A stretch of 40,470 nucleotides of DNA from a virus: UHGV virus genome UHGV-0078430; one strand, 5' to 3'. Every line of letters begins with the position of its first letter. Position 1 is the first letter of the stretch. Made by a program: the position numbers and the translations under genes. The notes below the pieces were generated by a model. The model was given only the letters and a program-made list of their open reading frames with translations, ran no database searches and had not been told where the DNA came from. Shown piece by piece: positions 11,470 to 40,456 of the stretch.

Positions 11470-12018
11470 TCAGCTAGCTGGAAACTTTTTATACAGAGTT
11501 GAGAGCCCTACTCCATACGTTTTTGATACGCTTTGTCGTGATTCACCGGTTGCCATCCGCTCCCCCATTTCCCGCCATTGCTCATCCGTGAACTTAGGCC
11601 TGCGACCACCAACTCGCCCTTTTGCCCTGGCTACGGCCAGCCCTGCTAAGGTACGTTCGCTATTAAGATCAGATTCATATTGTGCTGCGGAAAGGATGTT
11701 ACGAAAGTTATAGCGGCCGCTGGCTGTTTTGAGATCCACGCCATCGGTAATACTGCGGAAGTTGATACCCTTTTCCTGTAACTGCTGGAACATCAACAGC
11801 GCATGCAGAACGTTGCGGCCTATCCTGTCCAGCTTCCAGACCACCAGTTCATCCCCCGGCTGCATAGTGGCGATCAGCCGTTTTAGAACCGGCCGATTCG
11901 ATTTCCTCCCGCTGGCATGCTCTTCAAAAATTTTCTCACAACCCGCTGACTTGAGCGCCGTTAGTTGCAATTCAGTGTCCTGGTGGTTTGTTGATACTCG
12001 GGCATAACCGTAAATCAT
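11470..12018 (-). CDS. site-specific DNA invertase (Pin/Gin/Hin/Cin family small serine recombinase)
   Basis: MIYGYARVSTNHQ catalytic-Ser N-terminus, VVWKLDRIGR motif, C-terminal HTH (VGLSTLYKK); start trimmed to internal ATG at 12018 with AGGAG RBS 7 nt upstream. Confidence 0.9.
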   Translation of the reverse strand: MIYGYARVSTNHQDTELQLTALKSAGCEKIFEEHASGRKSNRPVLKRLIATMQPGDELVVWKLDRIGRNVLHALLMFQQLQEKGINFRSITDGVDLKTASGRYNFRNILSAAQYESDLNSERTLAGLAVARAKGRVGGRRPKFTDEQWREMGERMATGESRQSVSKTYGVGLSTLYKKFPAS

Positions 12019-12021
12019 GGG

Positions 12022-12048
12022 ATTTCTCCTGTTATGAAAACAGGAGAA
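12022..12048. other. 27-bp inverted repeat overlapping the invertase RBS
   Basis: minus strand tttctcctgtt-ttcat-aacaggagaaa, 11-bp arms with 5-bp spacer immediately upstream of the invertase start codon. Confidence 0.3.
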
Positions 12049-12077
12049 ACGGCGAAGCATCACCAGATTTTTGATGG

Positions 12078-12103
12078 TTATAAAAAAGGTTGGTTTGGGA
12101 AAC
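12078..12103. other. candidate hix/gix-like recombination site
   Basis: ttataaaaaaggttggtttgggaaac resembles my recollection of 26-bp hix/gix sites (TTATCAAAAACC..GGTTT..); only one copy found. Confidence 0.3.
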
Positions 12104-12152
12104 ACGAAGTATGAATGTAGTGCACCACATAAATTTCGAATCTTTGGCAAGC

Positions 12153-12183
12153 AAAACTGGATCACTAATAGTGATCCAGTTTT
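12153..12183. other. perfect 31-bp palindrome
   Basis: aaaactggatcact-aat-agtgatccagtttt, 14-bp arms; downstream of tail-fibre stop; terminator or protein-binding site. Confidence 0.4.
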
Positions 12184-12251
12184 AAATACCAATCGAAGGT
12201 TAAATGGTGGGCTTGTTGAGCCTAGAGCCTGTACATAAATTTTTTATTTTA

Positions 12252-14687
12252 CTATTCCATCTCGTCCATTCTCTTCATGACCATTGCGATATTCCGTCGT
12301 TGAAGCGCCGCCTCCATCACCAGAGCCTCCTCATATCGGATGCCGTATTTCTCACCGACAACGTAAGATTCAGCTATCAGCTTTTCATGCGCTGGTTCGG
12401 TCATGTTCCACAGCTCTGGTGAAACCTGTTTCCCATCGTCATCATAAACCGCTGGCACGACTTCATACACAGCAGGGACTGATTCATAAACAGCGGGAAT
12501 GGTTTCTTCTGGGTCGTAGCAAAAGAAAGCAAAACTATGAGGATCAAGGCCGTGGCGTTCAAAAGCCTCCTTGGCACGCTGAGCAATAATTCCAAAGTGC
12601 CAACGAGCACCGTCATCACCCTTGGCCTCTATCCTGTCGATAAACTGGAACTGCACGAAATCTACTTCCGCCCAGGCGTCCAGGATAATATCGGCATACG
12701 AGTCTTCCATCAGCCTGGGATCGGATACCGCCTCTGGCTCGAGGGACCCACGTGCCAGCATGACTGGACGTGATTTTTGTAGCTCATCGGATGTAACGGT
12801 GAACGCCGTCTGAGTGAATCCGCCAGCCCATATGGATGAGCTTGTCCCGACGCTATACGTGTTAGTCGCAACCGGCTGAACATTCCCGGTCACTCGAAGA
12901 GGCGAAAATACATCACTGACCGTAGCCGCAAATCGGGCTAACTCAGTACCCGGCGAATCCTCTGTAGAACCAGAATAGAGACGAACGCCGTTTTTACTGA
13001 ATATCGTGGTCGCAGATAAATCGTTAGCACCCTTTATCACGCCAATTCCAGCCTGCCAGTCCGCAGAACTGGGGCCTGTGACATCAGTGATGCTGTGCAG
13101 AGTTCCGCCCATCCGCCCGAACGGATCTGTAACGTTATCAAGATGCACCCCTCTTATCGTTATTTTACCAGTACTGCCGCCACCAGATACAAACCCTACA
13201 GGGCAATCCTTAAAAGTTACTCCACTTAACTTCGCGTATTTCCTGTTGATGATTGCGGCTCTGCTAACGTCTCTGCATACCAGCCCATTAATTACCGTAT
13301 CGTCCCCATTACCATACTCTCGGCCAGTCGATGTGCCACTGGTTGAGGCGGTGACAGATAAGCCATCTTCCGCGTTGGCTATCTGAATGTTAGAACCCCG
13401 GCAGTGCCGCTCTTCTATCCAGACGCCGTTTTTAAGTCGTCCGCCTTCATCACCGATAGCAACGATATTATTAAAATTAACAAATGGTGCCTTAATGTGC
13501 AGTCCGATTAACGTTGTGTAATCAGCACCAAACCGGTTTTGAACGACCGTTATGTCAGATACGTTTGCCCACGCACTCGATCCTCTTCCTTCTAAACTAC
13601 CAATCGGGCCTTGCTTGATACGAACACCCGCCCCAGGACAGCCAACGTCTCCAAAGTCAGAAACGTAGACATTAGATACTTTTGGCGCAATAGACATAAC
13701 ATCAACACCAGCCCAGGGGTTATTTGGCTCATCAAGCTGGCCGAAGTTAAATACGAAAATGTTATTAAGATGGAATGCGCGGCTGACAGATCCGTTATCT
13801 TTAATATCAATCCCATCAGCGCCGGTATTTTCTGACCAGTAACCATCAATAACGCACCCTTTGTAGCCGCCGTTCTGCAAACCCAGCCCATAGTGGGAGC
13901 AATTTTTAACCTTTAGGTTGTTGATGCTGAGACCCTCAATCCCCGCGCCGACCACCCCCTCTGTTTGTCTTACATAAGACGCAGACGTGAAATCTCCATG
14001 ATAGTTACCGTCAATGCAGATGTTGTGCAGACCTACACCATGAACTTTCGTAATGCCGTTTTGCAGCGGAGCCTTGGACCACTGGATAACGCCGTATGCC
14101 GAGTTGGTTGCATAAGCCTGAATGGTGGTTGAATTCCACCCCTGCCCACACAGGATTACGTTGTCGTAAGGAATGCGAAGAGCTGCAACGCGGATGGTCG
14201 CGGTCGAAGAGCTGAAATCAGACTCATCCATATGAACCTGATAAAGGCTTTTGGTGAAAACAATTCTTCCACCGCCAGCAGCGCTTAGTTCTGCTGCTTT
14301 TTGCATAATTTTATCGGCGTTAGATTTAGCGACAGTGATCGATACCAATCCACTTACAACACCAAATGATTCGGCTGTAACTTGAATACCTTCTAATCCA
14401 AGGTTTGTGGTAATCGCTGTCGCCAGCTTTGCCACCAGTCCATCAACGTCACCATCATCGAGCGCGTCCAGTTCGGCGTTCGCGATAAACTGCCCCAGTA
14501 CAGCCGCCATCGTCGACGGTTGGCGCAGCGCTTTACTGACCTGTGCGCTGGATGCTTTACCCGAGGAGAATCCTTTCTTCAGTGCGGTTAGCGTCTCCCA
14601 TTCCTCCTGCGAGGTAACATTTGCATTAGCATCTGTCGCAAACGCTTTAAAATCATTAGTTCCAGCCATTAAAGTAATCTCCCCCAT
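12252..14687 (-). CDS. tail fibre / tailspike protein with beta-helix-like central domain
   Basis: 811 aa, Gly/Asn/Val-rich repetitive central region typical of parallel beta-helix tailspikes, C-terminal tandem PAVYE repeats; last gene of tail module next to invertase. Confidence 0.7.
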   Translation of the reverse strand: MGEITLMAGTNDFKAFATDANANVTSQEEWETLTALKKGFSSGKASSAQVSKALRQPSTMAAVLGQFIANAELDALDDGDVDGLVAKLATAITTNLGLEGIQVTAESFGVVSGLVSITVAKSNADKIMQKAAELSAAGGGRIVFTKSLYQVHMDESDFSSSTATIRVAALRIPYDNVILCGQGWNSTTIQAYATNSAYGVIQWSKAPLQNGITKVHGVGLHNICIDGNYHGDFTSASYVRQTEGVVGAGIEGLSINNLKVKNCSHYGLGLQNGGYKGCVIDGYWSENTGADGIDIKDNGSVSRAFHLNNIFVFNFGQLDEPNNPWAGVDVMSIAPKVSNVYVSDFGDVGCPGAGVRIKQGPIGSLEGRGSSAWANVSDITVVQNRFGADYTTLIGLHIKAPFVNFNNIVAIGDEGGRLKNGVWIEERHCRGSNIQIANAEDGLSVTASTSGTSTGREYGNGDDTVINGLVCRDVSRAAIINRKYAKLSGVTFKDCPVGFVSGGGSTGKITIRGVHLDNVTDPFGRMGGTLHSITDVTGPSSADWQAGIGVIKGANDLSATTIFSKNGVRLYSGSTEDSPGTELARFAATVSDVFSPLRVTGNVQPVATNTYSVGTSSSIWAGGFTQTAFTVTSDELQKSRPVMLARGSLEPEAVSDPRLMEDSYADIILDAWAEVDFVQFQFIDRIEAKGDDGARWHFGIIAQRAKEAFERHGLDPHSFAFFCYDPEETIPAVYESVPAVYEVVPAVYDDDGKQVSPELWNMTEPAHEKLIAESYVVGEKYGIRYEEALVMEAALQRRNIAMVMKRMDEME

Positions 14688-15349
14688 GCGCCGTCATCAA
14701 AACCGGCGATGTATTCGTTATCCATGTCAAATCCAAAGAATTTTGTTCCTTCGGACGGTGTTTCGACCGAGGGTGTTTCAACGCCGCCAGCCCATACACC
14801 AGCAGCTTTAACGGTGAGATAACCCTGTTTGATAGCGGCTATCAGTTCGAGTGACACATCAGAAATATCAGTCTCGGGAAAAACCCAGACCGATATCGTC
14901 ATGTCCTGGTTGTCGACAATTTGCATCCTCAGGCCTGAGCCTGCAGTCGCAGCGTCAAGGATGGGAGGCAGAGAGTCGTTCCGACCGTCCCAGTTGTTGA
15001 TAGCGATTTTCGCTTTCAGAATGATGCGGTACGTCTCATCGCTTAGCGTCGTATAGCCAGAATCAGGATCATATGGCCCTTGCCAGATGCCCTGGTCATA
15101 CCCAAGCCCGTCAGTGTCCCAGCTGAAATAAACTCCGCTAATTGGCTGGCTGACTATGCGACTGCGTCCGATCCACAGACCGAGGATGTCGAGCTGTACA
15201 CCGACAGCAGTATCGATATCGAAGGCTGTTATAAGCCCTGACATAGTGCTGGACACATCAATCAGCGGGCGGGTGCTCAGATCTATATGGTCAAAAAAGA
15301 GTGGCTTGGTAGCGTGGTAGTTAGTGATCAGTTCGGTGTATTTGCTCAT
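14669..15349 (-). CDS. baseplate protein (P2 gpI / Mu gp48-like by position)
   Basis: 226 aa, between baseplate J-like gene and tail fibre gene as in P2/Mu gene order. Confidence 0.5.
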   Translation of the reverse strand: MSKYTELITNYHATKPLFFDHIDLSTRPLIDVSSTMSGLITAFDIDTAVGVQLDILGLWIGRSRIVSQPISGVYFSWDTDGLGYDQGIWQGPYDPDSGYTTLSDETYRIILKAKIAINNWDGRNDSLPPILDAATAGSGLRMQIVDNQDMTISVWVFPETDISDVSLELIAAIKQGYLTVKAAGVWAGGVETPSVETPSEGTKFFGFDMDNEYIAGFDDGAWGRLL

Positions 15350-16545
15350 GAGGTCACCGTGATACTGATATTCGCGGTGCTACAGGACGCTAAAGCATCA
15401 TAGGCAATATCAATGTTTGATGCCGATACGCTGCCAGACGACTTACCGATCAGCAGGTCGGTAATATCGTAATAGCGGGCATTCCCGCCGCTCACAACGC
15501 CGAGGTTTGCCGGGGAATAAATACGGCTCAGCAGAACGTCGTCGCCAATTGTTAGGCCATTTATATAATCGGCAACAGCCTGTTTAATCTGCTCGCCGAT
15601 TTGAGAGGTATAGCCGGTAAAAACTTTCAGGGTAATGGCTACGAAAATTGGCACATCGGTAGAGCGCGAAAAACTGATGACGTGAGGATTACCATAAGTA
15701 TCCGGCACTGTGACAGAAGTTTTACCGTAAGTTGCGGTTCCCTGCCCTTTATTCCCCCTGATGGTCTGGGCTATCTCGGTAACATCCCCTCCATCGACGA
15801 TGGCGGAAATAGAGTGTGGCGGCAGCCCGTTGCTGTCGGTTGCCCCAGTGTCGTTCTCATATAGTTTGTGACGTGTCACGCCAGCAACATTAGCGATAGC
15901 ACCGTCGACACCTTCAAACGGTGTGATCGATGGTAGCGCGACGCTTTGCCCCTGCCGAATGCGCAGCTCTGCGTCGGTTTCGGCTGGTGAACCGACAGTA
16001 GCCGCAACTGGATTGGTTACCGACACCCAACCTCGGGTCGGGGTGTTGATAGTGGTAATAGTCCCGGCCAGCGCCGCAACCGAACCGCTATTCGCACATG
16101 TGGCCGTCACCAGCACAGTACCATCAACGCCGATCGCCACACTCGCTGGAAAATTCCAGATAATGCCGTTTTTATCCCGTGCGGAGCCATTCGTGATAGT
16201 CGTGCCTGCCGTACCGGTTAACAGAAGGTCAGCAGTAGAGTTTGTCGCTACTTTTCGCGTGATCCCGTTAATTTTCACATTGCTGCTAAGCGCTGCGGCC
16301 TGCGCTGTCGTCGGTGAAAAAGAGTTGTAGATCCCGATAGCGGTGTTGTTAGCGTCATGCACGGCAAGAGCCACCAGCGCGACCATCTGCCCGTCTTTGC
16401 TGTCTGGTTCGAGGTAGGCATCACTACCGTAAATCTGCCTGAAATAGCTGGTCAGTGTATCTAGGATTGTCTGGTAATCAGGCGCACTAATCCCCTGGGC
16501 GGTTACCGTTGCCGATAGCCCCAGCGTGTCGAGGTTCAAAGCCAT
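15346..16545 (-). CDS. baseplate J-like protein
   Basis: 399 aa; position after W-like gene and before I-like gene; N-terminal region resembles baseplate J family. Confidence 0.65.
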   Translation of the reverse strand: MALNLDTLGLSATVTAQGISAPDYQTILDTLTSYFRQIYGSDAYLEPDSKDGQMVALVALAVHDANNTAIGIYNSFSPTTAQAAALSSNVKINGITRKVATNSTADLLLTGTAGTTITNGSARDKNGIIWNFPASVAIGVDGTVLVTATCANSGSVAALAGTITTINTPTRGWVSVTNPVAATVGSPAETDAELRIRQGQSVALPSITPFEGVDGAIANVAGVTRHKLYENDTGATDSNGLPPHSISAIVDGGDVTEIAQTIRGNKGQGTATYGKTSVTVPDTYGNPHVISFSRSTDVPIFVAITLKVFTGYTSQIGEQIKQAVADYINGLTIGDDVLLSRIYSPANLGVVSGGNARYYDITDLLIGKSSGSVSASNIDIAYDALASCSTANISITVTS

Positions 16546-16899
16546 TTATGCCTCGCTTGTTACAGTCGTCTGGCCGTAGATTGTGTCAATGGAGGAAGTG
16601 AAGGTGACGCGACGGCTGGTGCCGTCATAATTGGTATCGAAGGAAAGAATCGACAGAACGCCCGGTGTATCCTGTATGCGTTCGCGTATAGCCAGGATGT
16701 AGACATCTGATCGCTGCTTCCCAAGCACTGACTGAACATACGGCGTGCCTTCCGTCAGATCGAGAAACCACTGACCGCGCCACAGCTCGAAACGGGTTTT
16801 TACGGCCTGGGCGACACATTCCGGACTGTCGATAAGGAAAGTATCGTCACCCTGGCCGAAAGTGTAATCGCCTTCAGTATCTTCGCGACGGTATCGCAT
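16546..16899 (-). CDS. baseplate wedge protein (gpW / Mu gp46-like)
   Basis: 117 aa, between V-like and J-like genes. Confidence 0.55.
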   Translation of the reverse strand: MRYRREDTEGDYTFGQGDDTFLIDSPECVAQAVKTRFELWRGQWFLDLTEGTPYVQSVLGKQRSDVYILAIRERIQDTPGVLSILSFDTNYDGTSRRVTFTSSIDTIYGQTTVTSEA

Positions 16900-17639
16900 T
16901 ATTGCGGCCCTCCGGTAGTTCCCCCGCCAGTCTGTACTCCGCCATGTTTATGCGTGGCGACACTGATACCAGAAGCTGTTACGTCATTCGTTACCGTCAC
17001 CGGCCCAAGCATCGTCGCAGTACCGCCGCTTTCGCCCATTCCCTGAGACAAGTTGCCATTAATCGTTACGTTGCCGTTCAGCGTGATAGTCGGGGATGTG
17101 ATTGTCGTTCCACCTTCAGCCGTAGCTGTAAGCTGGCCCGGTGTTTTAATGGTGATGTTATGTCCTGCGGCGACTTCTACAAACGCCGCACCATCATCGG
17201 TTCGCAGCTGCGCGGCGCTGGTACTGATACCGCTGATTTTCCGTGCTTGCGACTGCGGGCCAACGATGGCGAACGCATCAGATAAGTCATGCTGGCGCGG
17301 GTCGACGGTCTCCTGAACGCCGCCGCTCTGCCACCAAAAATCGATGCAACGGTCAGCAAAAATCAGGAGGCACTCGTCGCCTTCTTTTACCGGAAAGGTC
17401 AGCGTGCAACCGCCGCCGCGCGGGAAGATGACCGGCACATCCACCAGCGGTTTTAATTCGGTGGATCCATCGCCAACAATACCGCGTAGCGCCACCTCTA
17501 CTGTGCAGGTAACAGTCTCAGGATCGAACGACTGAATGATGCCGGGCATCGCTACGCGCATCTGGGTCGACACCGAATCGGCAATGGCCTGCGCGGTCTG
17601 CTGCTCACCGCCGATCTGTGATTGAGTTGGAATTGGCAT
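16899..17639 (-). CDS. baseplate assembly protein V-like (central spike)
   Basis: 246 aa; Gly/Thr-rich C-terminal region with HKH motif (SVATHKHGG) reminiscent of spike-apex metal-binding motif; position after hub gene. Confidence 0.65.
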   Translation of the reverse strand: MPIPTQSQIGGEQQTAQAIADSVSTQMRVAMPGIIQSFDPETVTCTVEVALRGIVGDGSTELKPLVDVPVIFPRGGGCTLTFPVKEGDECLLIFADRCIDFWWQSGGVQETVDPRQHDLSDAFAIVGPQSQARKISGISTSAAQLRTDDGAAFVEVAAGHNITIKTPGQLTATAEGGTTITSPTITLNGNVTINGNLSQGMGESGGTATMLGPVTVTNDVTASGISVATHKHGGVQTGGGTTGGPQ

Positions 17640-17650
17640 AAAACCCCCAT

Positions 17651-17674
17651 AAAAAAACCAGCCGAAGCTGGTTT
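17651..17674 (-). terminator. Rho-independent terminator
   Basis: minus strand stem aaaccagc/gctggttt with 4-nt loop followed by U-run (plus-strand A7 at 17651-17657); lies just upstream of V gene. Confidence 0.45.
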
Positions 17675-17861
17675 GGTATCAATTATCTCTTAGTAACTAA
17701 GCTACATCAGTGTGAAGTAAGGCTTTTCCGCTGCAATGGCACACATTCACAAGGTGTATTAGGATATGTTTGCAACAAGTAAGCATTGAAAATCAATTTC
17801 AGCCATGAAGCCGCCATAGAGTGGACCTGCACCATCGCATTATTGACTACAGGAGTAACAA

Positions 17862-18152
17862 ATGGGATTTAGATTTCGTAAAAGAATCCGGATTGCGCCC
17901 GGACTCGCGATCAACATTAGTAAAAGCGGAGTAAGCACTTCAATTGGTGGTAAAGGTTCCACCATTAACATCGGGAAAAAAGGCGTAAAGATGACAAATG
18001 GCCTTCCCGGCACGGGGCTGTCGCATACCACTAACCTTTACTCTCCCGGGAAATCGACAGAAAAAAAACAACTTACTCATAAGCAAAAAATAATTAGAAA
18101 CATCCTGTTCGTAATTATTGTGTTTATTATAATTAAAGCTCAATATTTTTGA
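17862..18152 (+). CDS. DUF4236-like protein with C-terminal hydrophobic helix (moron)
   Basis: N-terminus MGFRFRKRIRIAPGLAINISKSGVSTSIGGKG...GLPGTGLS matches my recollection of the DUF4236 signature; opposite strand to surrounding tail genes; lower-GC local context. Confidence 0.6.
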   Translation: MGFRFRKRIRIAPGLAINISKSGVSTSIGGKGSTINIGKKGVKMTNGLPGTGLSHTTNLYSPGKSTEKKQLTHKQKIIRNILFVIIVFIIIKAQYF

Positions 18153-18157
18153 CGCAT

Positions 18158-18176
18158 GCCCGCCTATCTGGCGGGC
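18158..18176 (+). terminator. terminator hairpin between convergent moron genes
   Basis: gcccgcc-tatct-ggcgggc followed by tatttt. Confidence 0.4.
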
Positions 18177-18520
18177 TATTTTACTTTTCGGCAGTCGTAT
18201 GTTGCATACTGACGCGGCGAATCCATGCTGGCTTGCAACCACTGTGCGTTGAGAATGGCTTTGCCGTTTCGATTGATGTACTCAAGACCAACCCATCTTC
18301 CAGGCTGATCGGTAGCCATACGCCAATCCATCTTGATATTGTTATAATCGCCTTTGTTTTTCAGGAAGGTGATTTTTTGCATTTCTGGCTTTGCGCCATT
18401 GATTCTGGCTAAGCCATCATCTGCCCAATGGATTTTAAAATCACCACATTGCTGATCCGCAAAAGCGGGTGCTGATATAAGCACCGCGAACACGGTAACA
18501 GTGCAAAGTAAATGTCTCAC
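18176..18520 (-). CDS. secreted/periplasmic protein of unknown function (moron)
   Basis: 114 aa with N-terminal signal peptide (MRHLLCTVTVFAVLISAPAFA), two Cys in mature part; inserted between baseplate genes. Confidence 0.5.
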   Translation of the reverse strand: MRHLLCTVTVFAVLISAPAFADQQCGDFKIHWADDGLARINGAKPEMQKITFLKNKGDYNNIKMDWRMATDQPGRWVGLEYINRNGKAILNAQWLQASMDSPRQYATYDCRKVK

Positions 18521-18532
18521 GGCCCCACCTCA

Positions 18533-19597
18533 CTAATTCGTCGTCCCTTGCATTGCTTTCGGGCTATAAAGATCACGAGCGCCACGCGCAAAACACATCA
18601 AATCCATGTACCACGCCTGACCTCTGGTGTCGCCAGTATAGTCGATAGCTTTGACGATATAAACGCCATCCGTCGCAATGCTGGCAGCCTGTGACGTCGT
18701 GCCGGTCAGCACACGGTTGCCGTTCTCTTCTGTTTCGGTGATACGCCCGGGCGACTGTGCTATTTCGCTATTGCCGAGCGTGGCGCGGTACACCGAAGCC
18801 TGATCGAGCTGGATAAGACCATTAATACGGATGTTTGGGTTTATCAGGCACCGCACGTTTACTCCGCCGCCCATCGTTTGTTGCGGCATACCGATCAGGC
18901 CAGTATTGGCATTCAACACAATGGCTTCGTGAATATATTTATCCTCCGGCACCATCTGGACCTGACCATCCACCAGTTGCCATGTCGCTTTGCACTGCGC
19001 AGCAATATTATCCATCACGTTGCGGCTGGATGAGTAAATCGCGCGGCCACGAGGAAACACGGTATCAGGAAAATCGCCGGTAATGCCCTGTGTCACGCCG
19101 AACGCGTTGAAATCCTGCATCGTCGCCCGGTGCAGATCCGCAACGGTATAGCCAGCGGCAAGCGTGGTGATGGTAGTCGCGTAGAGGAACGCTTCGTGGT
19201 TACTGATGGCCTGAATCAGCACCCAGGAATCGGTGATGTTGTCCTTCCCGGTGACGGTGAAGCGAATATCACCGTCAAATATCAGGCCGTAGTTCTGACC
19301 GTTCACCTGCCCTACCTGGTCTGGTGAAATCTCCCGGGCGACACCAACCTGGCTCGCATCAACATCCGGCGCAATACCGTCATACCCGGCAATGATGCGA
19401 ATTTTTGCAAACTCCTGCCCCAGTATCTTGTTCGTGGTATCGGTCGAAAGGTTGTAAATTTTCACGTTTGCCACGCGCGGCCAGCGTGTATCTGCCCACT
19501 CGATCTGGAACGTGACCTTAAAATCAGACAGGGAAATACCCTGCCCGTTCTGGTCCAACAGCTGCAACTCAAAATGGCGCATCCAGTTAAGAGACAT
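18533..19597 (-). CDS. putative baseplate hub protein (Mu gp44 / P2 gpD-like by position)
   Basis: 354 aa; located between tape-measure-proximal genes and V-like gene. Confidence 0.5.
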   Translation of the reverse strand: MSLNWMRHFELQLLDQNGQGISLSDFKVTFQIEWADTRWPRVANVKIYNLSTDTTNKILGQEFAKIRIIAGYDGIAPDVDASQVGVAREISPDQVGQVNGQNYGLIFDGDIRFTVTGKDNITDSWVLIQAISNHEAFLYATTITTLAAGYTVADLHRATMQDFNAFGVTQGITGDFPDTVFPRGRAIYSSSRNVMDNIAAQCKATWQLVDGQVQMVPEDKYIHEAIVLNANTGLIGMPQQTMGGGVNVRCLINPNIRINGLIQLDQASVYRATLGNSEIAQSPGRITETEENGNRVLTGTTSQAASIATDGVYIVKAIDYTGDTRGQAWYMDLMCFARGARDLYSPKAMQGTTN

Positions 19598-19599
19598 TT

Positions 19600-19905
19600 C
19601 TACTCCTGCACGAAAATGAGGTGGCTGTATGTGCCGAGGTTGGTTTTGGTGGGCTCGTCTGGTGCGCCCTTATCGGTCGCCACCACCAGCGCACCATCAA
19701 TGCCAAGCTGTGGAAATTGTCGTAAAAGGTTCACGCCGGTCAGTAGAGGTACGCCAGAGAGAAGCGCGGCACCGCCGCTATCCATCACGTCCATAATCCA
19801 ACCAGCCGCATCGCGCCAGATGATCCTGAGCGTATACGTAGTATTGCCCAGCAAAACGCGGAACTGCTGATTGTCAGGAGAAAGCGGTATTTCGTTAAAC
19901 TGCAT
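19600..19905 (-). CDS. tail-associated protein, unknown function
   Basis: 101-aa ORF tightly packed in tail operon. Confidence 0.45.
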   Translation of the reverse strand: MQFNEIPLSPDNQQFRVLLGNTTYTLRIIWRDAAGWIMDVMDSGGAALLSGVPLLTGVNLLRQFPQLGIDGALVVATDKGAPDEPTKTNLGTYSHLIFVQE

Positions 19906-32066: not shown

Positions 32067-33694
32067 CAGGCCTGTCTCCCTAGCAGCTCCCAGATGTTCA
32101 GGGCTGAATTCATTGGCGCGTAGCTGATCATCACCGAGTCGGCGAGGTTCGGCGACTTGGTGCCATCAGGCTGTTTATCAACAACGATTTTCCCCACGCC
32201 ATTAATGGAGTAGGTCGGCTGCGACAGCTCAATGATGAGTTTGTCTTTGCTCGCCATGGCGCTGCTGATTGAGATGATTTCGTCCGGGTTGTAGGCCATG
32301 CCCTCAACCACGGCGCGATAGGTGTTCTGGAAAAGCTTGCGTAGCCACCACCAGCTCTGGGCCTTGGCGTTGGCGAAGAAGTCCTTGTTCAGGCGTGCGG
32401 CCTGTCCGTTGTCCCCGCGCACCGCTTCATCGTCCGGATCAAATACCGCGCCGCTACCACGAAACGGTGTGGCGAGTATTGACGGTCGGCGCGCTGCGTA
32501 ACGCAGTTCGTTGATGGCGCGCGCATCGCCGCGAACGCCAGCACCCAGGCCGTCCTCGTCGAAGCGAAACTCTTCGAGGTTGTCCTGTTCGCAAAAGCCG
32601 AAGACCTTCTCAACAGACTGGTAAATGTCGCTGCCAACGCCGGACCATTCACGCACGTTCTCCAGGAGGAAGCCGTGACGGGTCGAAAAGGCGTTTTTGT
32701 CCCGGCCTTCGTCGGCGACGTCCATCGCGCCCAGGCGTTTGCCCGTTGGCTGGATGCCCAGCTTAATATGAGCGTCGACGGCAGCCTGTACCCAGTCGGA
32801 CGGGATCAGGACGCCTTCCGCAGATGCGCTGTAGTTCAGGTCAAGTTCCTGCGCCACCACCACCGGATTGTCGATTTTCTCGCACTCCCTGCGATACCAC
32901 TCTTCATCCTTGCGAGGATCATCCCGCCAGTGGAATGTGAATACCGGTATCTTCCCGCCGTGACGCTTCTGCGCGAACGGGTTCGCCATGCCATTAACCG
33001 AGCTCAGGTCAATACGGCAACGGGTGGTTTGCGACAGCGCCGCATCAATCAACAGAGGACGCTGGAGGAATGCAGCTTCATCCACCAGGTAGAGCGTGGT
33101 ACGGTCACCACGTCCGATATTGTCGCCAGCCTCGCCTTTGATAACCGCGCCAGTATCTGGAAACTCAACGCGCATATACGGCGCATGCTTCTTCTCGTCC
33201 CACGAACCACGAAACTCGATGGGCAGTGTTTCCACGAACTTTCGCGCCTTCCAGAACAGCGCCTTCGGGTCACCGGTGCTGTCGACGTATTCCTCTTTAC
33301 GGGAGCCGAAACCGATAACCATTTCTTTGTTGAAGAGACAAAGCGAGCAGGCCAGCCCGATCGCGGTCCAACTGAGCCCCATTTCGCGGCTCTTTTCGGT
33401 GATGCCGTTCTCCAGTCGTTCGCGCCGCTCCATGATCCAGTGAATCCACTCTTCCTGTTTCGGGAACAGCAGAAAAGGGATGGTGACCGGCAGGCCATAA
33501 TCGATGTTACGCGGGTCAGTAGTCATACCCCAGTCGATGATGAACTGTGCCGGGTTGGTGCGATAAAACTGCTTTAGCGCTGGCAGCATTTCAGGGTTCT
33601 GGCGAATGCGCTGTAAGCGCTCCATCCGCCATTCAAAAACCATCTGGTAATCAGGGTTTCTGAAATCGAATTCAAACGGGAGAGGCATGATCAC
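32066..33694 (-). CDS. terminase large subunit
   Basis: 542 aa; Walker-B-like [11 protein letters not shown]; followed by portal; preceded by small-subunit-like gene. Confidence 0.8.
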
Positions 33695-34164
33695 CCCATC
33701 ATCTTGCGGTAAATCTCTGCGGCCTGATCTGCGGTGAGGTTGGTCGTCTCGGTCTTGATCGGGCCGCCATCCTTGCCAGTGCTCTCAACCTTCAGCTTAT
33801 TGGTGTAAGCGTCGCCAACCTCTTTCGCGGCCTGTTCGATAAGCTGCGCCGTCAGGGAGAAGTTTTTCATCCCCTCGGTTTTGGTTGCCATGCGGTCAAG
33901 CACGCGGAGGCGATAGGATTTGTTCGCTATCGGAATGTCGCTGGTTTCGGTCAGGAACCGTTCGCGCGTCGCGTGGAACATCTCGATCCACTTTTTGGCG
34001 AGCGTCTTACCGCTGGCCTTCGTGGGGTCGTGAGATTCAGCCTGCTGGCGGGTAATCTTGATCCCGAATTCTTTTTGGACAGCCTCGACCACCTGCGATG
34101 GCGTGTCATAGCACGCAAGCGACTGAATGATGAAGGCTTTCACATCAGGTTTTAATGCAGCCAT
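33691..34164 (-). CDS. terminase small subunit (putative)
   Basis: 157 aa, overlaps start of large terminase (ATGA-type coupling). Confidence 0.55.
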
Positions 34165-34876: not shown

Positions 34877-35431
34877 TCAGCCAATAAGTAATTCCGGCTG
34901 CGTTACCTGCATGATGTGCTCATGTTCGAGCTCCAGGACGCGCTTCTCTTTCTTCCGCTCGTTCATCAAACGGCTTCCGATCGTGCCTTTCAGCTTTGAG
35001 CGCGTTTCTTTGATGGCGTAGCGATGCTGCAATTCTTCACCCATCGCCATGCGCCGGTTTAGCTGCTCGGCCATCCAGTTGAAGGCATTGATGTAACACT
35101 CCTTCACTGCGGCAGCTGTTTTGCCAGTGAATCCCATCACTAGCATCATGCATCCGTCGCGGGTGATGTTATACATAGGCTGAACATCGCCATTTTTATC
35201 AATGAAATCAATGGGCGCAAAATTGCGCTGGGTGAAGTCATCGGAGCATTTCAGGTTACGTATGGCACGCAAAACGTCTTTGTGTCGCTTGCCAAAGTAA
35301 TCCGCCACCTTGAGTGATGTGGTGATTATCTTGTTGTCGAGGGTCGTGACCATTTCGCGGAAGTCGAAGGCCGGAATAACTGACGGATTATTCATAGCGT
35401 CTTTACCTTTTAGAAAGTGAGCCTGTCTCAC
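34877..35431 (-). CDS. phage regulatory protein Rha
   Basis: N-terminal TSLKVADYFGKRHKDVLRAIRNL matches Rha-family signature; start probably internal Met (MNNPS). Confidence 0.75.
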   Translation of the reverse strand: MRQAHFLKGKDAMNNPSVIPAFDFREMVTTLDNKIITTSLKVADYFGKRHKDVLRAIRNLKCSDDFTQRNFAPIDFIDKNGDVQPMYNITRDGCMMLVMGFTGKTAAAVKECYINAFNWMAEQLNRRMAMGEELQHRYAIKETRSKLKGTIGSRLMNERKKEKRVLELEHEHIMQVTQPELLIG

Positions 35432-35561: not shown

Positions 35562-35593
35562 TCATTAAATTGACTTTGTGATTTGCAAAAAAA

Positions 35594-36061
35594 TTATTTC
35601 AGGCATTGCGTCCTGATGTATTCCTGCAGGTAGTTAACCTGCGCGGTTATCCTGTCGATTCCACTTCGGAGACGGTAATAATTGAGTTCAGCATCTGCTG
35701 TAAGTCTTGGGCTTTCTCCATCGCCCATGCTGCTGGCTCCGGTCGTTGACTTTGCACAGGTGGCGGCGACTTGCAGCCGCTTACGGCCAGCAATGACATC
35801 GCTATGCAGACGCTCAATGGTTTCTTTCGCATCAGCCAGTTCTCCGGTGTATTTGGCATCCAGTGCAGCGACATCACGCTGGCGGGTCTGCATGTCTTTA
35901 ATGGTGGCGGTCGCCAGGAGGAGTTTCTCAGTGGCCTTATCGCGCTGGTCTCTGTAAGTGATGGCGTTGTCGCGGTAGTGGTTCACGAAGAAAGCCAGTG
36001 CGCCGATTAACGCCAGCACCAGCAACTGCAGCCAGTAACGCTTAACCAGTGCGCTAATCAT
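35594..36061 (-). CDS. i-spanin (Rz-like)
   Basis: 155 aa, N-terminal TM helix, coiled-coil periplasmic domain; downstream of endolysin; contains embedded lipoprotein ORF. Confidence 0.75.
35647..35832 (-). CDS. o-spanin (Rz1-like lipoprotein) embedded in Rz
   Basis: 61-aa product [20 protein letters not shown]... with lipobox and Pro-rich mature part, entirely within the Rz gene in another frame. Confidence 0.7.
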
Positions 36062-36534
36062 GACAGGAACAGAGCTCGCTCTGCCTCCCGCCGACGTGTC
36101 AGCCCATTCAGCACCTTCCCACCAGCTTTATTCCAGCGCAGGAACTCATCGGCTGCACCAGCGTAATCTCCGGCGTTGAGTTTTCGCAGGAGAGTCGATG
36201 TCGACAATGACCGCGCACCGAGGTTATACGTGAACGACACCAGGGCATCGAACTGGCCTTGTGTCAGCTTCACCCTGACAACTTTCAGCACGTCATTCTC
36301 ATAACCAACAAGCCCTGTTTTCAGAAGCCTGTCAGCGGTTTGCTGGTCGATAGTCATACCGCGCTTTACTGGCTTTCCGTCAACCGGATGGGTCCAGCCA
36401 TAGCCGATGGTCCACGGCGCATCTCCCGTTCCGGGGTCGGGGTAAGCAGTCAGCCGACAACCTTCAAATTTTTTTATCAGAGCAATTCCGTCAGGACTGG
36501 TTTGCATCGTCAACTCCCGCCTTTTTTGCTGCAA
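36058..36534 (-). CDS. endolysin (GH24 lysozyme-like)
   Basis: [20 protein letters not shown]...WTIGYGWT motif typical of T4-lysozyme-like muramidases; true start may be internal Met (MQTSPDG). Confidence 0.85.
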
Positions 36535-36814
36535 GTTTTTTAATCAGATTGCCGATCGAATCGGTGCCGATGTATCCAATAAAGACGCTGGCTATGTAGG
36601 CGAGGTTGCTGCTCAGGCCGATAAAGTCCAGAAGGTCACGAACGAACCAGGCAATCATCGCGCACATCAGCGCATCAATTAGCGTTTTTGTTACCGCGCC
36701 GCCGTTATAGCGACCACGCAGATACGCCATGATAAAAGCCAGCATTGCACCAATACCCTGCTCCTTGGCGGCAAGTAGCGCAGCGATGAAATCTTGTTTG
36801 TATGGCATTTTCAT
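36491..36814 (-). CDS. class I holin (lambda S-like) with dual-start motif
   Basis: 107-aa product from MKM start, closely matches my recollection of lambda S ([27 protein letters not shown]...[21 protein letters not shown]); ORF trimmed from 36934. Confidence 0.85.
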
Positions 36815-36922: not shown

Positions 36923-36946
36923 AAAAAAGCCCACGGCGCGGTGGGC
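36923..36946 (-). terminator. Rho-independent terminator
   Basis: minus strand gcccac-cgcgcc-gtgggc followed by U6. Confidence 0.45.
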
Positions 36947-36996
36947 AATAGAGGGTAGTGCGTTGAGCTTTTGCTCTTATGGTCCTGGTAGGTATT

Positions 36997-37071
36997 TGGC
37001 GGGACAGGAAGGATTCGAACCTTCGACCAATCGGTTAACAGCCGATCTCACAACCTCTGTGCTTCTGACCC
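36997..37071 (-). tRNA. tRNA-Asn-like (anticodon GUU), possibly phage-borne or degenerate
   Basis: manual cloverleaf: acceptor GGGTCAG/CTGTCCC (one T-T mismatch), D-arm with GG, anticodon stem ATCGG/CCGAT with loop CTGTTAA, T-arm GAAGG-TTCGAAT-CCTTC, encoded CCA. Confidence 0.45.
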
Positions 37072-37078
37072 TGAATGC

Positions 37079-37105
37079 AAAAAGCCCCTGCATTTCTGCA
37101 AGGGC
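37079..37105 (-). terminator. tR'-like terminator downstream of Q-position gene
   Basis: minus strand gcccttgca-gaaa-tgcaggggc followed by U5. Confidence 0.45.
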
Positions 37106-37189
37106 TTAAATGTGGTTCACACCGCTCCGCGCAAGGCATCTCCGCTGGTGGGTAAGCTCTTTCGCCTTTGACGTCCGAGCATATCTGAA

Positions 37190-37873
37190 TTATGCAGTTT
37201 CAAAACTCGTTTTCAAGTCTTTTTCGCAAGTTTTTGCATTTTCGAAGCCAAATTCATCTTTTAACGTGAAGAAGACAGCAGAATTAAACAACTCAATACA
37301 CCAGCGCACGCGGTCAATACATTGCTTTTCGGTCAGAAACGGCGCGTAGTAATATTGCATCCACCGTGCCATGTCATTAATGGTTTTCCTCCAGGTGTAA
37401 TAGTCCTTCCCTATCTCATACACGGGATTCCCCGGCTTGAAGGACTTCAGGATGATAGCCTCCATGAATGCAGCTTCCTCTTGATCCCCGGCGTTGCCGA
37501 TCAGGTCAGAAAGTGATTTCTTCGGCCAGATGATGGCTTTAGCCTGCTCAAACAACGCATCTCCGGTATAGCCAATTTTACGCAGACCAGACAGTACGGT
37601 AGCGATCCGCTCCTGCTGTTCGCCAGTCCAGCCGGTCAATATCATTGACCACATACCACCGCCACCTGAAAGGTGTTCTATTCCGCTGCCTCCATACATG
37701 CCGCCCCAGTGGTTCAGCAACGAACGAACCCAACGGCTTTGCGATGGTGTCAGTCGGCGGTATTTCCCCAGGTAAGATCTGCGTGGTGCTGCTGCCAGCG
37801 TCACCCAGGCGTTTTGCGGGTTGGTACGCTCAACAGACGCTTTCTGGTAATTGTTAATATCGGTGCGTGTCAT
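37190..37873 (-). CDS. putative late-gene regulator (antiterminator Q position)
   Basis: 227-aa product from ATG overlapping rusA stop (ATGA); located between rusA and tR'-like terminator/lysis genes as Q is in lambdoid phages; family not recognised by sequence. Confidence 0.45.
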   Translation of the reverse strand: MTRTDINNYQKASVERTNPQNAWVTLAAAPRRSYLGKYRRLTPSQSRWVRSLLNHWGGMYGGSGIEHLSGGGGMWSMILTGWTGEQQERIATVLSGLRKIGYTGDALFEQAKAIIWPKKSLSDLIGNAGDQEEAAFMEAIILKSFKPGNPVYEIGKDYYTWRKTINDMARWMQYYYAPFLTEKQCIDRVRWCIELFNSAVFFTLKDEFGFENAKTCEKDLKTSFETA

Positions 37874-38229
37874 TGTCCGTTCTCCCGAATGATGATCTGG
37901 CCTTTCTCGCCCCATAGCTTTGTAATGCGACAATCCCAGACACTGGAATCATCATCAAACAGGGCATCCATCAGTGCTTTAAGCATGTTGTCGCAGTCTG
38001 GTTTTGACTGGTGCGGCTTGCCGTTGAGCTGTTCACGCTTCTTTTTTCTCCAGCTCGGAGGCATTGGCATAACGAAGGTGATATGCGCGCCGGACTCAGG
38101 GAGATTGATTTTGCGCAGACGTGCTTCATCGCAGAATGCGCGGTAACGCATGACCGCAGGCCGTGTTTTCCATTTGTCGGCGCGGGTCATACGGGGCTTG
38201 CCGATCGGCGTGATGTCGTAAATTTTCAT
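37870..38229 (-). CDS. rusA: Holliday junction resolvase RusA
   Basis: 119-aa product MKIYDITPIGKPRMTRADKW...DCDNMLKALMDAL matches RusA family from memory; ORF trimmed from 38376. Confidence 0.8.
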   Translation of the reverse strand: MKIYDITPIGKPRMTRADKWKTRPAVMRYRAFCDEARLRKINLPESGAHITFVMPMPPSWRKKKREQLNGKPHQSKPDCDNMLKALMDALFDDDSSVWDCRITKLWGEKGQIIIRENGQ

Positions 38230-38525
38230 GCTGGCACCACCAGCCCAAGGCGGGCTATCTGGATAACGGTCAGAACGATAGCGCGGTCCATCAGCTGGCG
38301 GCGTTCGTCTCGCGATAGCTTGCTGCCGTTGTCGATGCTGTCGTGGCAGCAAACGCAAATCGCCGCCGTGGCGCAATCATCGGCTTTCAGGCCCATGCCT
38401 TTGCCTTCATTGCGATGCGCTACCTGTGTCCCCCACGAACCGCATAACACGCACTGCTCGATCTGCCCGACAGCGGCGAGCCATTTTTTGCTGCGGTAGG
38501 TTTTCTGACTGGGGTTATTTCGCAT
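38226..38525 (-). CDS. Cys-rich nin-region protein (YbcO/DUF1364-like)
   Basis: about 99 aa with CVLCGS...CVCCH cysteine clusters; position between ninB and rusA as ybcO in DLP12-type prophages. Confidence 0.5.
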   Translation of the reverse strand: MRNNPSQKTYRSKKWLAAVGQIEQCVLCGSWGTQVAHRNEGKGMGLKADDCATAAICVCCHDSIDNGSKLSRDERRQLMDRAIVLTVIQIARLGLVVPA

Positions 38526-38967
38526 TGCTGTTCCCCCAGCGCTTTGCCCACTCGATTTCATTGCGGGATTGTTCGCTGAATGTGACGCCCTGCTGGGTGC
38601 CGAACCAGTAAATCGCCTCGATGACCTCTACCATCTGGGGAATGGTCATTTTGCTGGTGCGCTGGCCGAACATCACGACGCCGCCATCAAGCCCGGGGGC
38701 CATTCGCTGTTCCTGCTTTTTGGTCTTCGCCACCAGCGCGGTGATGAGGTCTTTCCAGTCGTCGGAATCGTATTTATTGCCGAACCAGAGAACCTGGTCG
38801 GAAAGATCTTTCAGTAGCGGCCACATCTTGCGATTTTGAATAGCGGTGCGCGTCGACTCTTTGACGTCGAGTATCAGCGGGCGCTTACTGTCGACTGGCA
38901 ACTGACGAATGTAGTTGATAGCGTTCTGCTTAACGCTTTCGTTAACGAGGTGGAATTGTTGGCTCAC
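38515..38967 (-). CDS. ninB: recombination protein NinB (Orf family)
   Basis: 150 aa; QNAINYIRQLP...QNRKMWPLLKDLSDQVLWFG...GQRTSKM...EWAKRWG matches my recollection of lambda NinB; GTG start. Confidence 0.8.
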   Translation of the reverse strand: MSQQFHLVNESVKQNAINYIRQLPVDSKRPLILDVKESTRTAIQNRKMWPLLKDLSDQVLWFGNKYDSDDWKDLITALVAKTKKQEQRMAPGLDGGVVMFGQRTSKMTIPQMVEVIEAIYWFGTQQGVTFSEQSRNEIEWAKRWGNSNAK

Positions 38968-39156
38968 GCGTCACCCCCGAAGAGGTTAAGCGACAGATAC
39001 GACAAATCGCTGACGTCGGATAACGTCAGGCGAATGTGTTTAAGCTGGTGGTGCTGCGCCATGGTGTTCTCCGTGGCGCGAATGTCCGGGTGTCAGTTGT
39101 TCAGGCTGACAGGGATATTATGGATGGGCATTGTGGCAAAAGCAATTTAACGCCGA

Positions 39157-39179
39157 CAAAAAAAGCCTCCGAAGAGGCT
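39157..39179 (-). terminator. Rho-independent terminator
   Basis: minus strand stem agcctc/gaggct with 4-nt loop followed by U-run (plus-strand A7). Confidence 0.45.
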
Positions 39180-39196
39180 TGTATGTTATTGATTAC

Positions 39197-39214
39197 ATTG
39201 TGACATGTCACAAT
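39197..39214. other. perfect 18-bp palindrome overlapping stop codon
   Basis: attgtgaca/tgtcacaat; candidate operator or protein-binding site. Confidence 0.4.
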
Positions 39215-39546
39215 GCTAATTTAGTTTCATGCCAGCCACGCGTAACCCAGCATTTCGAATCACCGTCGCACGGACACGACTTAACCGGCAGCGCATCTCC
39301 GCATTTACCGCAGCGGTTCGCGCTGATTGACTTAATGCGACCACGAACGCGGGCATCGTCCTGGCGGATCAGCATCGCGACGTATTCGCTCATTTCATAC
39401 GGCGCTCGCCCCGGGCGGCGTGATGCACAATTGCGCTCCAGCATCTCCAGTTCCTGCGTATCAAGCATGAGCTCAAATTTACGACCACCAGCAGCAGCTT
39501 GCCGGGCTCGCTGGGCGGCTTTGCGTTCAGCGGCAGATTTAGCCAT
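39208..39546 (-). CDS. hypothetical protein with C-terminal Cys cluster
   Basis: 113-aa product from ATG overlapping upstream stop (CATGGCTAA); CGKCG...CPCDGDSKC suggests zinc binding. Confidence 0.5.
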   Translation of the reverse strand: MAKSAAERKAAQRARQAAAGGRKFELMLDTQELEMLERNCASRRPGRAPYEMSEYVAMLIRQDDARVRGRIKSISANRCGKCGDALPVKSCPCDGDSKCWVTRGWHETKLAL

Positions 39547-40456
39547 GACCGGACTCCTGAATAGCGGCACGACAGGCTTGTTCAACATGTGTGCGTACCA
39601 TTTCCCGGCAATCTTCCGCATTGTCGGCATAAGTTGCCATAATTCCATTTACTGCTGCGCTGATCACAGAATCAGGCACTGTCTGCGGCGCTGGCTTAAG
39701 ATGCTGGCGCGGCTCTCCGTCCTTCGGCTCCGGCCACTGGCGCGCCATGTTCACTTTCAGCTTTTCTTCCATCGCAGCTGTGATTTCACCGTCACTGATA
39801 CCGGCGCGCCGCTGGGCGTCCCATAACAGGAACTGCATGTCAGCCCACTCGCTGAGGTCGTCAGGTTCTGCGGCAGCTTCCAGCGCCTCTTTCGACAGGT
39901 GTTTAAGCGGGCCAACGGGACCAACATCGCCGAAAGTCTTATCTGACCATTCAGCGTGTTCACGGCGAACCTGTTCGCGCTTACTTACAGGTTGGCTACC
40001 CTGAAGCATGGCGGCGTGGCAGGCATCCTCAACGTTCTTCACTGCATCTGCGCAGTAGTTATAGCGATTGCATTCCACTAACTTCTGCTTGAGATTTTCA
40101 ATTGCTTGCGCGACATCAGCCTGTATTGGCGGAACGGCTGTCTGCTGCTCTCGAACGTCATTAGTCGCTATCGGTTCTGCTGCCAACTGACTGGCATATT
40201 TGTTAATGGTAACGATAAGCTCTTGCTCGGCCTCATCCAGACAATCACCGATACCTCGTCTGTCGCCGTCGAAATGATCGAAGTCTGTGCGAATTCTGGC
40301 GACTTTACGGATTGCTGATAACACCTCATCAGGAATCACCGGAGAGTTGCCACCCTGAACAGTAGGCATATCCGGACCTTTGCGAATCGCCCTGGCAAGA
40401 TCGATTGGGTCATCGTACAACCAGTCACCTGTTTGCGGATGATTGGCTTCTGCCAA
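39539..40456 (-). CDS. nin-region protein, possibly MazG/DUF550-like NTP pyrophosphohydrolase
   Basis: 305 aa; C-terminal region (EALEAAAEPDDLSEWADMQFLLWDA) resembles MazG-like all-alpha NTPase motifs; low certainty. Confidence 0.4.
   Translation of the reverse strand: MAEANHPQTGDWLYDDPIDLARAIRKGPDMPTVQGGNSPVIPDEVLSAIRKVARIRTDFDHFDGDRRGIGDCLDEAEQELIVTINKYASQLAAEPIATNDVREQQTAVPPIQADVAQAIENLKQKLVECNRYNYCADAVKNVEDACHAAMLQGSQPVSKREQVRREHAEWSDKTFGDVGPVGPLKHLSKEALEAAAEPDDLSEWADMQFLLWDAQRRAGISDGEITAAMEEKLKVNMARQWPEPKDGEPRQHLKPAPQTVPDSVISAAVNGIMATYADNAEDCREMVRTHVEQACRAAIQESGHG

Follow-up and report, generated by a model that had tools for sequence, protein, structure and literature searches.

The stretch of DNA analysed here (the window) is the virus genome UHGV-0078430, 40,470 nucleotides long, and the element of interest is the prophage in its right part, where a run of minus-strand genes with a GC content of 0.54 extends from yciI (about 11055-11351) to the right edge. 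Genes were named using PHROG and Pfam scans, and gene names in the related prophage of Escherichia coli TOK-001 (NZ_AP018395) are those of the PGAP annotation. The region from 11333 to the right edge is very probably the late half (lysis, packaging, head and tail) of a temperate phage of the SEN34/Omnitron type, integrated in the 3' end of yciI and carrying a fibre tip that was swapped at gix-like sites. The left junction is a 17-bp direct repeat, ATTTAAGAAAGTGTTCT, which recurs where the TOK-001 prophage ends on its integrase side. In another relative (L002), where the site is empty, this core precedes a TGA stop, and comparison with L002 and with the distal TOK-001 junction demonstrated that integration rebuilt the end of yciI, replacing TGA with a TAA stop. 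The first-pass annotation had drawn the prophage from 11470 to 40456; its left end has to be moved outward by about 120-135 bp to the repeat at 11333-11349, and its right limit is the edge of the window and no prophage end. The open reading frame (ORF) at 39539 runs off that edge in the nin region, and the prophage leaves the window there. The TOK-001 copy sits at the identical yciI site and goes on to include replication genes, CII/Cro/CI-type regulators, recombination genes and, beside kch, a tyrosine integrase, for a total of about 42 kb, giving it a full lambda-like early region as well as the integrase.

Every gene named in the first-pass annotation was found on the minus strand between 11470 and 40470 and each was backed by PHROG or Pfam, with a few small ORFs of unassigned function as the exceptions to this support. 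The nin region, Q-position gene, S-R-Rz/Rz1 and Rha had been called lambdoid, and this was borne out by PHROG matches, by tblastn to lambda and by DNA identity to phage phi80, which reached 97.7% over the Rz-Rha stretch. The order NinB, DUF1364, RusA, Q-like gene and then S is the nin-Q-lysis arrangement of lambdoid phages, and the cassette of holin, endolysin and Rz/Rz1 is complete, as in those phages. By analogy with lambdoid biology, late transcription would start at a promoter overlapping the 3' end of the Q-like gene and the Q-like protein would let RNA polymerase pass the terminators into S-R-Rz/Rz1 in a pR'/tR' layout; the promoter-like site and the two strong terminators between the Q-like gene and S are consensus matches only. 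The morphogenesis products encoded downstream in the same orientation, from portal to fibre, would then form a head, whose portal is of the DUF1073 type and whose capsid belongs to PF09950, and a simple contractile tail like those of Pam3, XM1 and PBSX. A tRNA-Asn (GTT) gene lies between the Q-like gene and the holin gene with terminator-like hairpins on either side.

The closest relatives were identified at both the DNA and the protein level. Megablast matched Omnitron (CP115737) at 96.8% over 81% of the query, with further matches to vB_EcoM-606R2 and its relatives, Hafnia phage yong1 and SEN34, and the DNA identity to E. coli TOK-001 was 99.4% over 26 kb. Using tblastn, 38 window proteins were compared to the genomes of Mu, P2, lambda, SEN34, Omnitron and 606R2. 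Omnitron proteins were 96-100% identical for most genes and 72-96% in the stretch from hyp114 to the tape measure. Identity to SEN34 was 48-97% across TerL to DUF2612 (75-97% for the five neck and head-completion proteins and 37% for one small unnamed tail ORF), and the tape measure aligned to SEN34 over 47% of its length. The candidate small terminase subunit (TerS) of the DUF2280 type is unrelated to SEN34 TerS, reaching 15% coverage, though the large subunit (TerL) was 95% identical, suggesting that the packaging-specificity gene was exchanged inside the phage group. The nearest solved structures by sequence were those of cyanophage Pam3 and the 7kh1/7kjk/7kmx set, which we take to be Vibrio phage XM1. 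About 61% of the visible half aligned to SEN34 DNA at 65-85%, under the 70% genus threshold quoted in PMC12945033, placing the window prophage and SEN34 in separate genera by that threshold; a collinear homologous head-tail module is common to both.

The fibre locus lies next to an intact Gin/Pin-type serine invertase gene. The invertase is 51% identical to Mu Gin and 100% identical to the TOK-001 copy and starts at MIYGYARVS. The 240-residue ORF listed at 11470-12192 was rejected as the invertase because its 5' end is over-extended and the true start is internal. Three gix-like sites, A, B and C, were found with the 12+2+12 layout of Mu gix sites and an AACC-NN-GGTT core, and in site B, which falls inside the fibre gene, the outer half and the central AA are preserved and the inner half is poor. 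The window is 100% identical to TOK-001 from yciI through the invertase; identity stops inside site A and restarts at the central AA of site B, at about codon 95 of the fibre gene, and the alignment to Omnitron breaks at both same places. In TOK-001, an invertible 1.8-kb segment occupies the corresponding interval and encodes two assembly chaperones as well as two alternative tips; in the window, A and B enclose one 2.3-kb tip and no assembly chaperone. A search of 12104-14400 for an alternative tip returned no substantial plus-strand ORF, and simulated inversion between A and B resulted in a tipless truncated fibre of 144 residues. With no second tip and an inversion that truncates the fibre, the intact invertase is left without a productive switch in cis. 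A 24-nt near-perfect palindrome in the A-C piece could act as a terminator in either orientation of that piece.

The tip could be traced to a P2-like source. Its 716 residues are 100% identical to the C-terminal part of 989-residue E. coli proteins that have a P2-type anchor, and one of these proteins occupies the gpH position of a true P2-like prophage (L009) with an invertase directly after it. At the DNA level, 2218 bp beginning in site B are 99.9% identical to this gpH-position gene. The adjoining 112 bp are in the opposite orientation in L009 and the inner half-sites of A and C are exchanged, as inversion at the central dinucleotides predicts. From these alignments we conclude that the invertible two-tip segment was recently replaced by a fixed single tailspike tip taken from a P2-like prophage. 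The cassette at 12104-14400 has a GC content of 0.48 compared to 0.54 in the rest of the prophage, consistent with recent import. There was no near match to the cassette in 5,426 complete E. coli genomes, and a search of genome contigs returned no match to the exact chimeric fibre junction. The sole IMG/VR match to that junction, contig IMGVR_UViG_3300045988_002995, is 100% identical to 11333-19436 (the part compared), and its start coincides with the att core. Its length of 29,224 bp matches a span from 11333 to slightly beyond the right edge; the contig almost certainly represents the window's own source sequence and hence adds no independent evidence.

We propose that the tip arrived as a cassette through recombination at the gix-like sites between which the two-tip segment would normally be flipped by the resident invertase. 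A more specific version of this proposal, that the phage's own Gin-type invertase, working intermolecularly at gix sites, captured the tip from a P2-like prophage resident in the same cell, is offered tentatively, as we judge it to fall slightly short of an even chance. If true, crossover sites would be docking points for the exchange of receptor-binding cassettes between unrelated contractile-tailed phages, beyond inversion switching, and the result would be a lambdoid myovirus that bears a depolymerase tailspike and an "orphan" invertase; this invertase may still work in trans on other prophage segments. Trans action on other prophages is known for Pin-type invertases of prophages (PMC12529663), and such activity or the recency of the swap are possible reasons for the retention of the invertase here.

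The fibre measures 805 residues from the ATG at 14669, the start used by PGAP in TOK-001, and is a chimera of a SEN34-type baseplate anchor of about 95 residues and a predicted beta-helix tailspike of about 716 residues with an S74 chaperone. An AlphaFold2 model built from a 32-sequence alignment had a predicted local distance difference test score (pLDDT) mostly above 80 for residues 100-545, and Foldseek matched it with probability 1.0 to right-handed beta-helix proteins, namely AlgE4 and the tailspikes of Sf6, HK620, CBA120 (TSP3) and K5A (lyase). The C-terminus matched the K1F endosialidase intramolecular chaperone 3gw6 (E=1e-15). Homologues of the tip with 51-88% identity were found behind other anchors, including PF12571, PF18668, PF09008 (P22-type) and PF03906 (T7-type). 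The model and these matches suggest that the tailspike probably depolymerises polysaccharides and carries a self-cleaving chaperone of the S74 type.

The late region had been described as intact and this description held, as every gene was free of internal stops and the check for frameshifts and truncations came out clean. All structural genes aligned over about 100% of their length to TOK-001, nearly all to Omnitron and most to SEN34 (tblastn), with the tape measure, fibre and TerS as mosaic exceptions. The slippery heptamer of the tail assembly chaperone, G GGA AAT at 23011-23005, is a canonical -1 signal and intact, and the -1 frame is open for about 84 codons and ends at 22766 at the tape-measure start codon; this -1 frameshift layout is conserved in phage tail assembly genes. 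Rz1 is preserved within Rz with the lipobox LAVSGC. The ORF at 39539 was considered as a frameshifted gene and rejected, as it is merely cut by the window: its frame is open to the edge and carries on in TOK-001, where PGAP annotates pseudogene pieces. By its PHROG matches this ORF seems to fuse parts of two gene families.

These results bear on the alternative that the element is a defective or cryptic remnant that kept its late genes and lost excision, replication or infectious particles, which we consider improbable. More than 30 late genes are open and full length, with 99-100% protein identity to TOK-001 and 97-100% to Omnitron, a circular 41.9-kb phage record, barring the stretch from hyp114 to the tape measure, the swapped tip and the putative DUF4236 moron. 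The frameshift signal and Rz1 are preserved, and TOK-001 retains the integrase, CI/Cro/CII and replication genes. We therefore prefer the late half of a temperate, presumably inducible phage with a swapped fibre tip. Several points weigh against this preference or, as with the first three, favor a remnant. Of the prophage, the window shows only the late half; the genes for immunity, replication and integration would lie beyond it, and completeness of the present copy is extrapolated from the TOK-001 relative. PGAP marks three nin/early genes as incomplete or as pseudogene fragments in that near-identical copy. The invertase has been left with no second tip to switch to, and inversion between A and B would yield the tipless 144-residue fibre. 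Omnitron particles are shown in no paper that we found. The Q-like protein, which had no Pfam, NCBIfam or PDB sequence match, is a candidate Q assigned by one PHROG family and by position. Assembly of the new tip on a SEN34-type anchor is predicted. Finally, the crossover intervals of 7 and 11 nt include the central dinucleotides and fit catalysis by the invertase or short-homology recombination alike.

The first-pass annotation had also described the morphogenesis genes as Mu/P2-like and in Mu/P2 order. The Mu-F-like domain, the contractile tail and an order collinear with Mu gp39-gp53 (sheath to invertase) were confirmed, but membership of the Mu and P2 families was not (tblastn, Pfam), and the order is not that of P2, in which V-W-J-I-H-G precede FI-FII-E-T-U-D as a separate operon. 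A lambda x Mu/P2 hybrid, with head and tail genes of Mu/P2 lineage, would be in keeping with this domain and order as well as with the Gin identity, a weak match of J to Mu gp47, the GpV Apex motif and Baseplate_J. However, none of the 38 proteins had a tblastn match in the P2 genome, and the only matches in Mu were Gin (51%), half of the lysozyme, J (27% over 43% of the protein, E=3e-6) and TerL (E=6e-4). There was no tblastn match to the Mu sheath, tube, capsid, portal, protease/DUF2213, hub, V or W, or to Mu gp30 itself for the Mu-F-like protein, despite its PF04233 match at E=7e-18. In the PDB list for J, a "Baseplate protein gp47" chain, possibly from Mu, reached only E=5e-6. The Pfam families of the sheath, tube, plug, I-position protein, hub, capsid and portal (DUF3383, KPP10_Orf10, Pam3_gp18, DUF2612, E217_gp41, PF09950 and PF06381) are not those of Mu or P2, and the precomputed Pfam families of a true P2-like prophage were Phage_sheath_1, Phage_tube, Phage_base_V, GPW_gp25, Tail_P2_I, GPD and Phage_cap_P2. 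The overlap between the window and Mu/P2 is limited to the invertase, Baseplate_J, the GpV Apex motif and the Mu-F/SPP1-gp7 domain, and with P2 it comprises, at the Pfam level, only Baseplate_J and the Apex motif; both Baseplate_J and the Mu-F domain occur in a wide range of tailed phages. A Mu/P2 lineage is therefore very unlikely, and the morphogenesis module is, as judged from these comparisons, one of the SEN34/Omnitron/vB_EcoM-606R2 group and not of Mu or P2 type. The broader claim of a mosaic temperate phage joining lambdoid late control and lysis to a contractile tail was upheld. A Mu-like transposable phage was rejected, as head genes of the Mu type are missing and an integrase and att core are present in the relative. 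A tailocin or headless contractile-tail particle cluster, suggested by the relation of the tail module to the PBSX/XkdK-type simple contractile tails of some tailocins, can be dismissed almost entirely given the full head and packaging set (TerS, TerL, portal, Mu-F-like protein, protease/scaffold, cement, capsid and neck) and closest relatives that are genome-carrying phages.

The coordinates of the features are collected in Table 1. An NCBIfam scan of ten poorly named proteins (the Q-like, metallopeptidase-like, TerS, TerL and W-like proteins and others) returned only a sub-threshold neck-terminator match. The DUF4236 gene, which separates the central-spike gene from the tail gene after it and runs on the other strand, is present in TOK-001 and had no tblastn match in Omnitron, SEN34 or 606R2; from this distribution it looks like a moron.

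Table 1. Features of the prophage region, by position in the window.
Feature	Position	Strand	Evidence or remarks
att core ATTTAAGAAAGTGTTCT, left prophage junction	11333-11349		last codons of yciI; 17-bp direct repeat
Gin/Pin-type serine DNA invertase, 182 residues, intact	11470-12018	-	phrog_125 E=3e-75; PF00239 + PF02796 (resolvase + HTH_7)
gix-like crossover site A	12078-12103		TTATAAAAAAGG TT GGTTTGGGAAAC; complete; unique in window, 0 expected by chance
Near-perfect palindrome, 24 nt, in A-C piece of about 100 bp	12144-12192		inverted-repeat search; T-runs after stem on both strands
gix-like site C, degenerate	12184-12209		AAATACCAATCG AA GGTTAAATGGTG
Tail fibre/tailspike, 811-residue ORF	12252-14687	-	SEN34-type anchor (about 95 residues), predicted beta-helix, S74 self-chaperone (PF13884)
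gix-like site B inside fibre gene, codons about 92-100	14388-14413		ACCTTCTAATCC AA GGTTTGTGGTAA
DUF2612 baseplate protein (gpI position)	14669-15349	-	PF11041 E=1.5e-46; 82% to SEN34
Baseplate J/gp47-family wedge protein	15346-16545	-	PF04865, phrog_6; PDB relatives 9zd7, 7kh1 gp16, Pam3 gp22
gp25/W-like wedge protein	16546-16899	-	phrog_120 E=1e-35; no match in Pfam scan
Central spike (V position)	16899-17639	-	PF18352 N-domain + PF18946 GpV Apex
DUF4236 gene	17862-18152	+	PGAP name in TOK-001
Conserved tail-module protein, function unassigned	18176-18520	-	phrog_3443
Baseplate hub	18533-19597	-	phrog_196 E=2e-83; weak PF22759 E217_GP41
Baseplate plug	19600-19905	-	PF22479 Pam3_gp18 E=1e-24
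Dit-like tail protein	19907-20509	-	PF21821 E=7e-31
Tape measure, 755 residues, SLT lytic transglycosylase domain	20509-22776	-	phrog_2276 E=7e-220; PF01464
Tail assembly chaperone (22954-23379) with -1 frameshift extension	22766-23379	-	PF21822, phrog_1688; frame analysis
Tail tube	23383-23823	-	PF11681 KPP10_Orf10 (DUF3277) E=2e-59; Pam3 tube 8hdr E=4e-10
Contractile tail sheath	23834-24994	-	PF11863 DUF3383 E=5e-104, phrog_205; 7kh1 sheath E=2.5e-35; Pam3 sheath E=2.7e-26
Five neck/connector and head-completion genes	24998-25546, 25536-25925, 25912-26466, 26463-26870, 26836-27225	-	phrog_1973, 939, 222 (Neck1), 302, 2619
Major capsid protein	27267-28208	-	PF09950 E=7e-82, phrog_264; Pam3 capsid 8hdt E=3e-18
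Head structural/cement protein	28220-28723	-	phrog_563; PGAP "structural cement protein Gp24"
DUF2213 head maturation protease/scaffold candidate	28728-29960	-	PF09979; phrog_1961, phrog_12864
Mu-F/SPP1-gp7-like minor head protein	29975-30583	-	PF04233 E=7e-18, phrog_324
Portal protein (DUF1073-type)	30597-32066	-	PF06381 E=1.5e-104, phrog_146
Terminase large subunit	32066-33688	-	phrog_2 E=2e-31; 95% to SEN34 TerL
DUF2280 small terminase candidate	33691-34164	-	phrog_546; PGAP DUF2280
Putative metallopeptidase, 206 residues	34196-34816	-	PGAP name; phrog_513, filed by PHROG under "transposase"
Rha-family regulator	34877-35395	-	phrog_518 E=1e-76
Rz i-spanin with embedded Rz1 o-spanin (35647-35829)	35594-36061	-	phrog_13; 52% to lambda Rz; Rz1 lipobox ORF
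Endolysin (lysozyme)	36058-36507	-	phrog_7 E=2e-68
Lambda-family holin S	36491-36814	-	phrog_126; 81% to lambda S
Late control region	36929-37216	-	promoter-like site 37216-37189; terminators 37107-37082, 36946-36929; tRNA-Asn 36997-37071
Q-like antiterminator candidate	37190-37873	-	phrog_753 E=1e-57
RusA	37870-38229	-	phrog_140
DUF1364 protein	38226-38525	-	phrog_131
NinB	38515-38967	-	phrog_72; 37% identical to lambda NinB
Small regulator-like protein	39208-39546	-	phrog_536
Long ORF, 3' part, dATP/dGTP pyrophosphohydrolase domain, edge-cut	39539-40470	-	PF04447

To the left of yciI, positions 1-10832 form a separate low-GC (0.40) island of about 11 kb. Its genes include a large serine integrase (50-1570), a Dit-like tail protein (1603-2394), a tape measure (2531-4579) and a Dam-like methyltransferase with a helix-turn-helix (9022-9684); six ORFs had no PHROG or Pfam match, and no capsid, portal or terminase was found among the island genes. 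In the relative L002 the island is flanked by a 12-bp direct repeat, CAAGGGTCATTG, that holds the tonB start codon, so that the island separates the coding sequence of tonB from the native promoter region, which now lies at about 10833-11050. Of 5,426 complete E. coli genomes, only 6 cover at least 80% of the island.

Taken by itself, the prophage is an ordinary recombinant variant of an experimentally characterised phage type: the mosaic of lambdoid control and contractile tail is already established, and the window copy is nearly identical to deposited sequences. For annotation, the lineage result matters in that contractile-tail prophages with V/W/J-type baseplates are commonly mislabelled "Mu/P2-like" and belong to a separate SEN34/Pam3/XM1-type lineage. 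The fibre locus is a clean natural example, with junctions at base-pair level, of a receptor-binding cassette passing between a P2-like phage and a lambdoid myovirus. Such cassette exchange bears on predicting and engineering phage host range, and its mechanism is long proposed and not new; Sandmeier, Iida and Arber, and Haggard-Ljungquist and co-workers, reportedly proposed exchange of fibre cassettes for Mu, P1, P2 and e14 in the early 1990s. The only detail new here is the replacement of a two-tip segment, exactly at two gix-like sites, by a single P2-type tip.

Among known relatives, the Brunovirus SEN34 is mitomycin-C inducible and plaque-forming, with a contractile tail seen by electron microscopy and lambda-like regulation and replication genes, and its authors assigned it to a new lambda-like cluster, "temperate 26" (PMC5261728). 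The induced urinary E. coli phage 923, a myovirus by transmission electron microscopy, has vB_EcoM-683R1 and SEN34 as its nearest relatives, with an intergenomic similarity of 31.3 to SEN34 (PMC12945033). A literature search on Omnitron and the vB_EcoM-6xxR phages returned no descriptive paper and only a table entry in PMC12945033. The window prophage resembles SEN34 in its lambda-like regulation, nin, Q and S-R-Rz genes and in the collinear DUF1073 portal, Mu-F-like, DUF2213, PF09950, DUF3383, Baseplate_J and DUF2612 genes. It differs in TerS, nin genes, Q type and fibre, and SEN34 is without an invertase. Omnitron and the TOK-001 prophage share its gene order, invertase and site A, with about 97% and 99.4% DNA identity, respectively, outside the fibre cassette. 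Unlike the window, Omnitron is without the putative DUF4236 moron, and part of its tape measure and the fibre segment between A and B differ. Lambda and phi80 resemble the window prophage in NinB, holin S, Rz with its embedded Rz1, and a Q-position gene followed by a terminator. In contrast to lambda, the endolysin is a lysozyme and not lambda R, the Q-like protein had no match to a Pfam Q family, and no lambda head or tail gene was detectable here.

The fibre locus has its closest counterpart in the Mu G segment with Gin, and also in P1 Cin, e14 Pin and Salmonella Hin. As in these systems, the invertase gene lies just past the fibre gene, the sites have the 12+2+12 layout and one site is in frame at the boundary between constant and variable parts. 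In contrast to these systems, the window has one tip, no assembly chaperone and a degenerate inner half of site B, and inversion truncates the fibre. The tailspikes of K1F, Sf6, HK620, CBA120 and K5A are alike in the PF13884 domain, right-handed beta-helix core and exchangeable N-terminal anchor. Compared to these solved tailspikes, sequence identity is confined to the C-terminal region, and the module of the window prophage is predicted to be mounted on the baseplate of a contractile tail.

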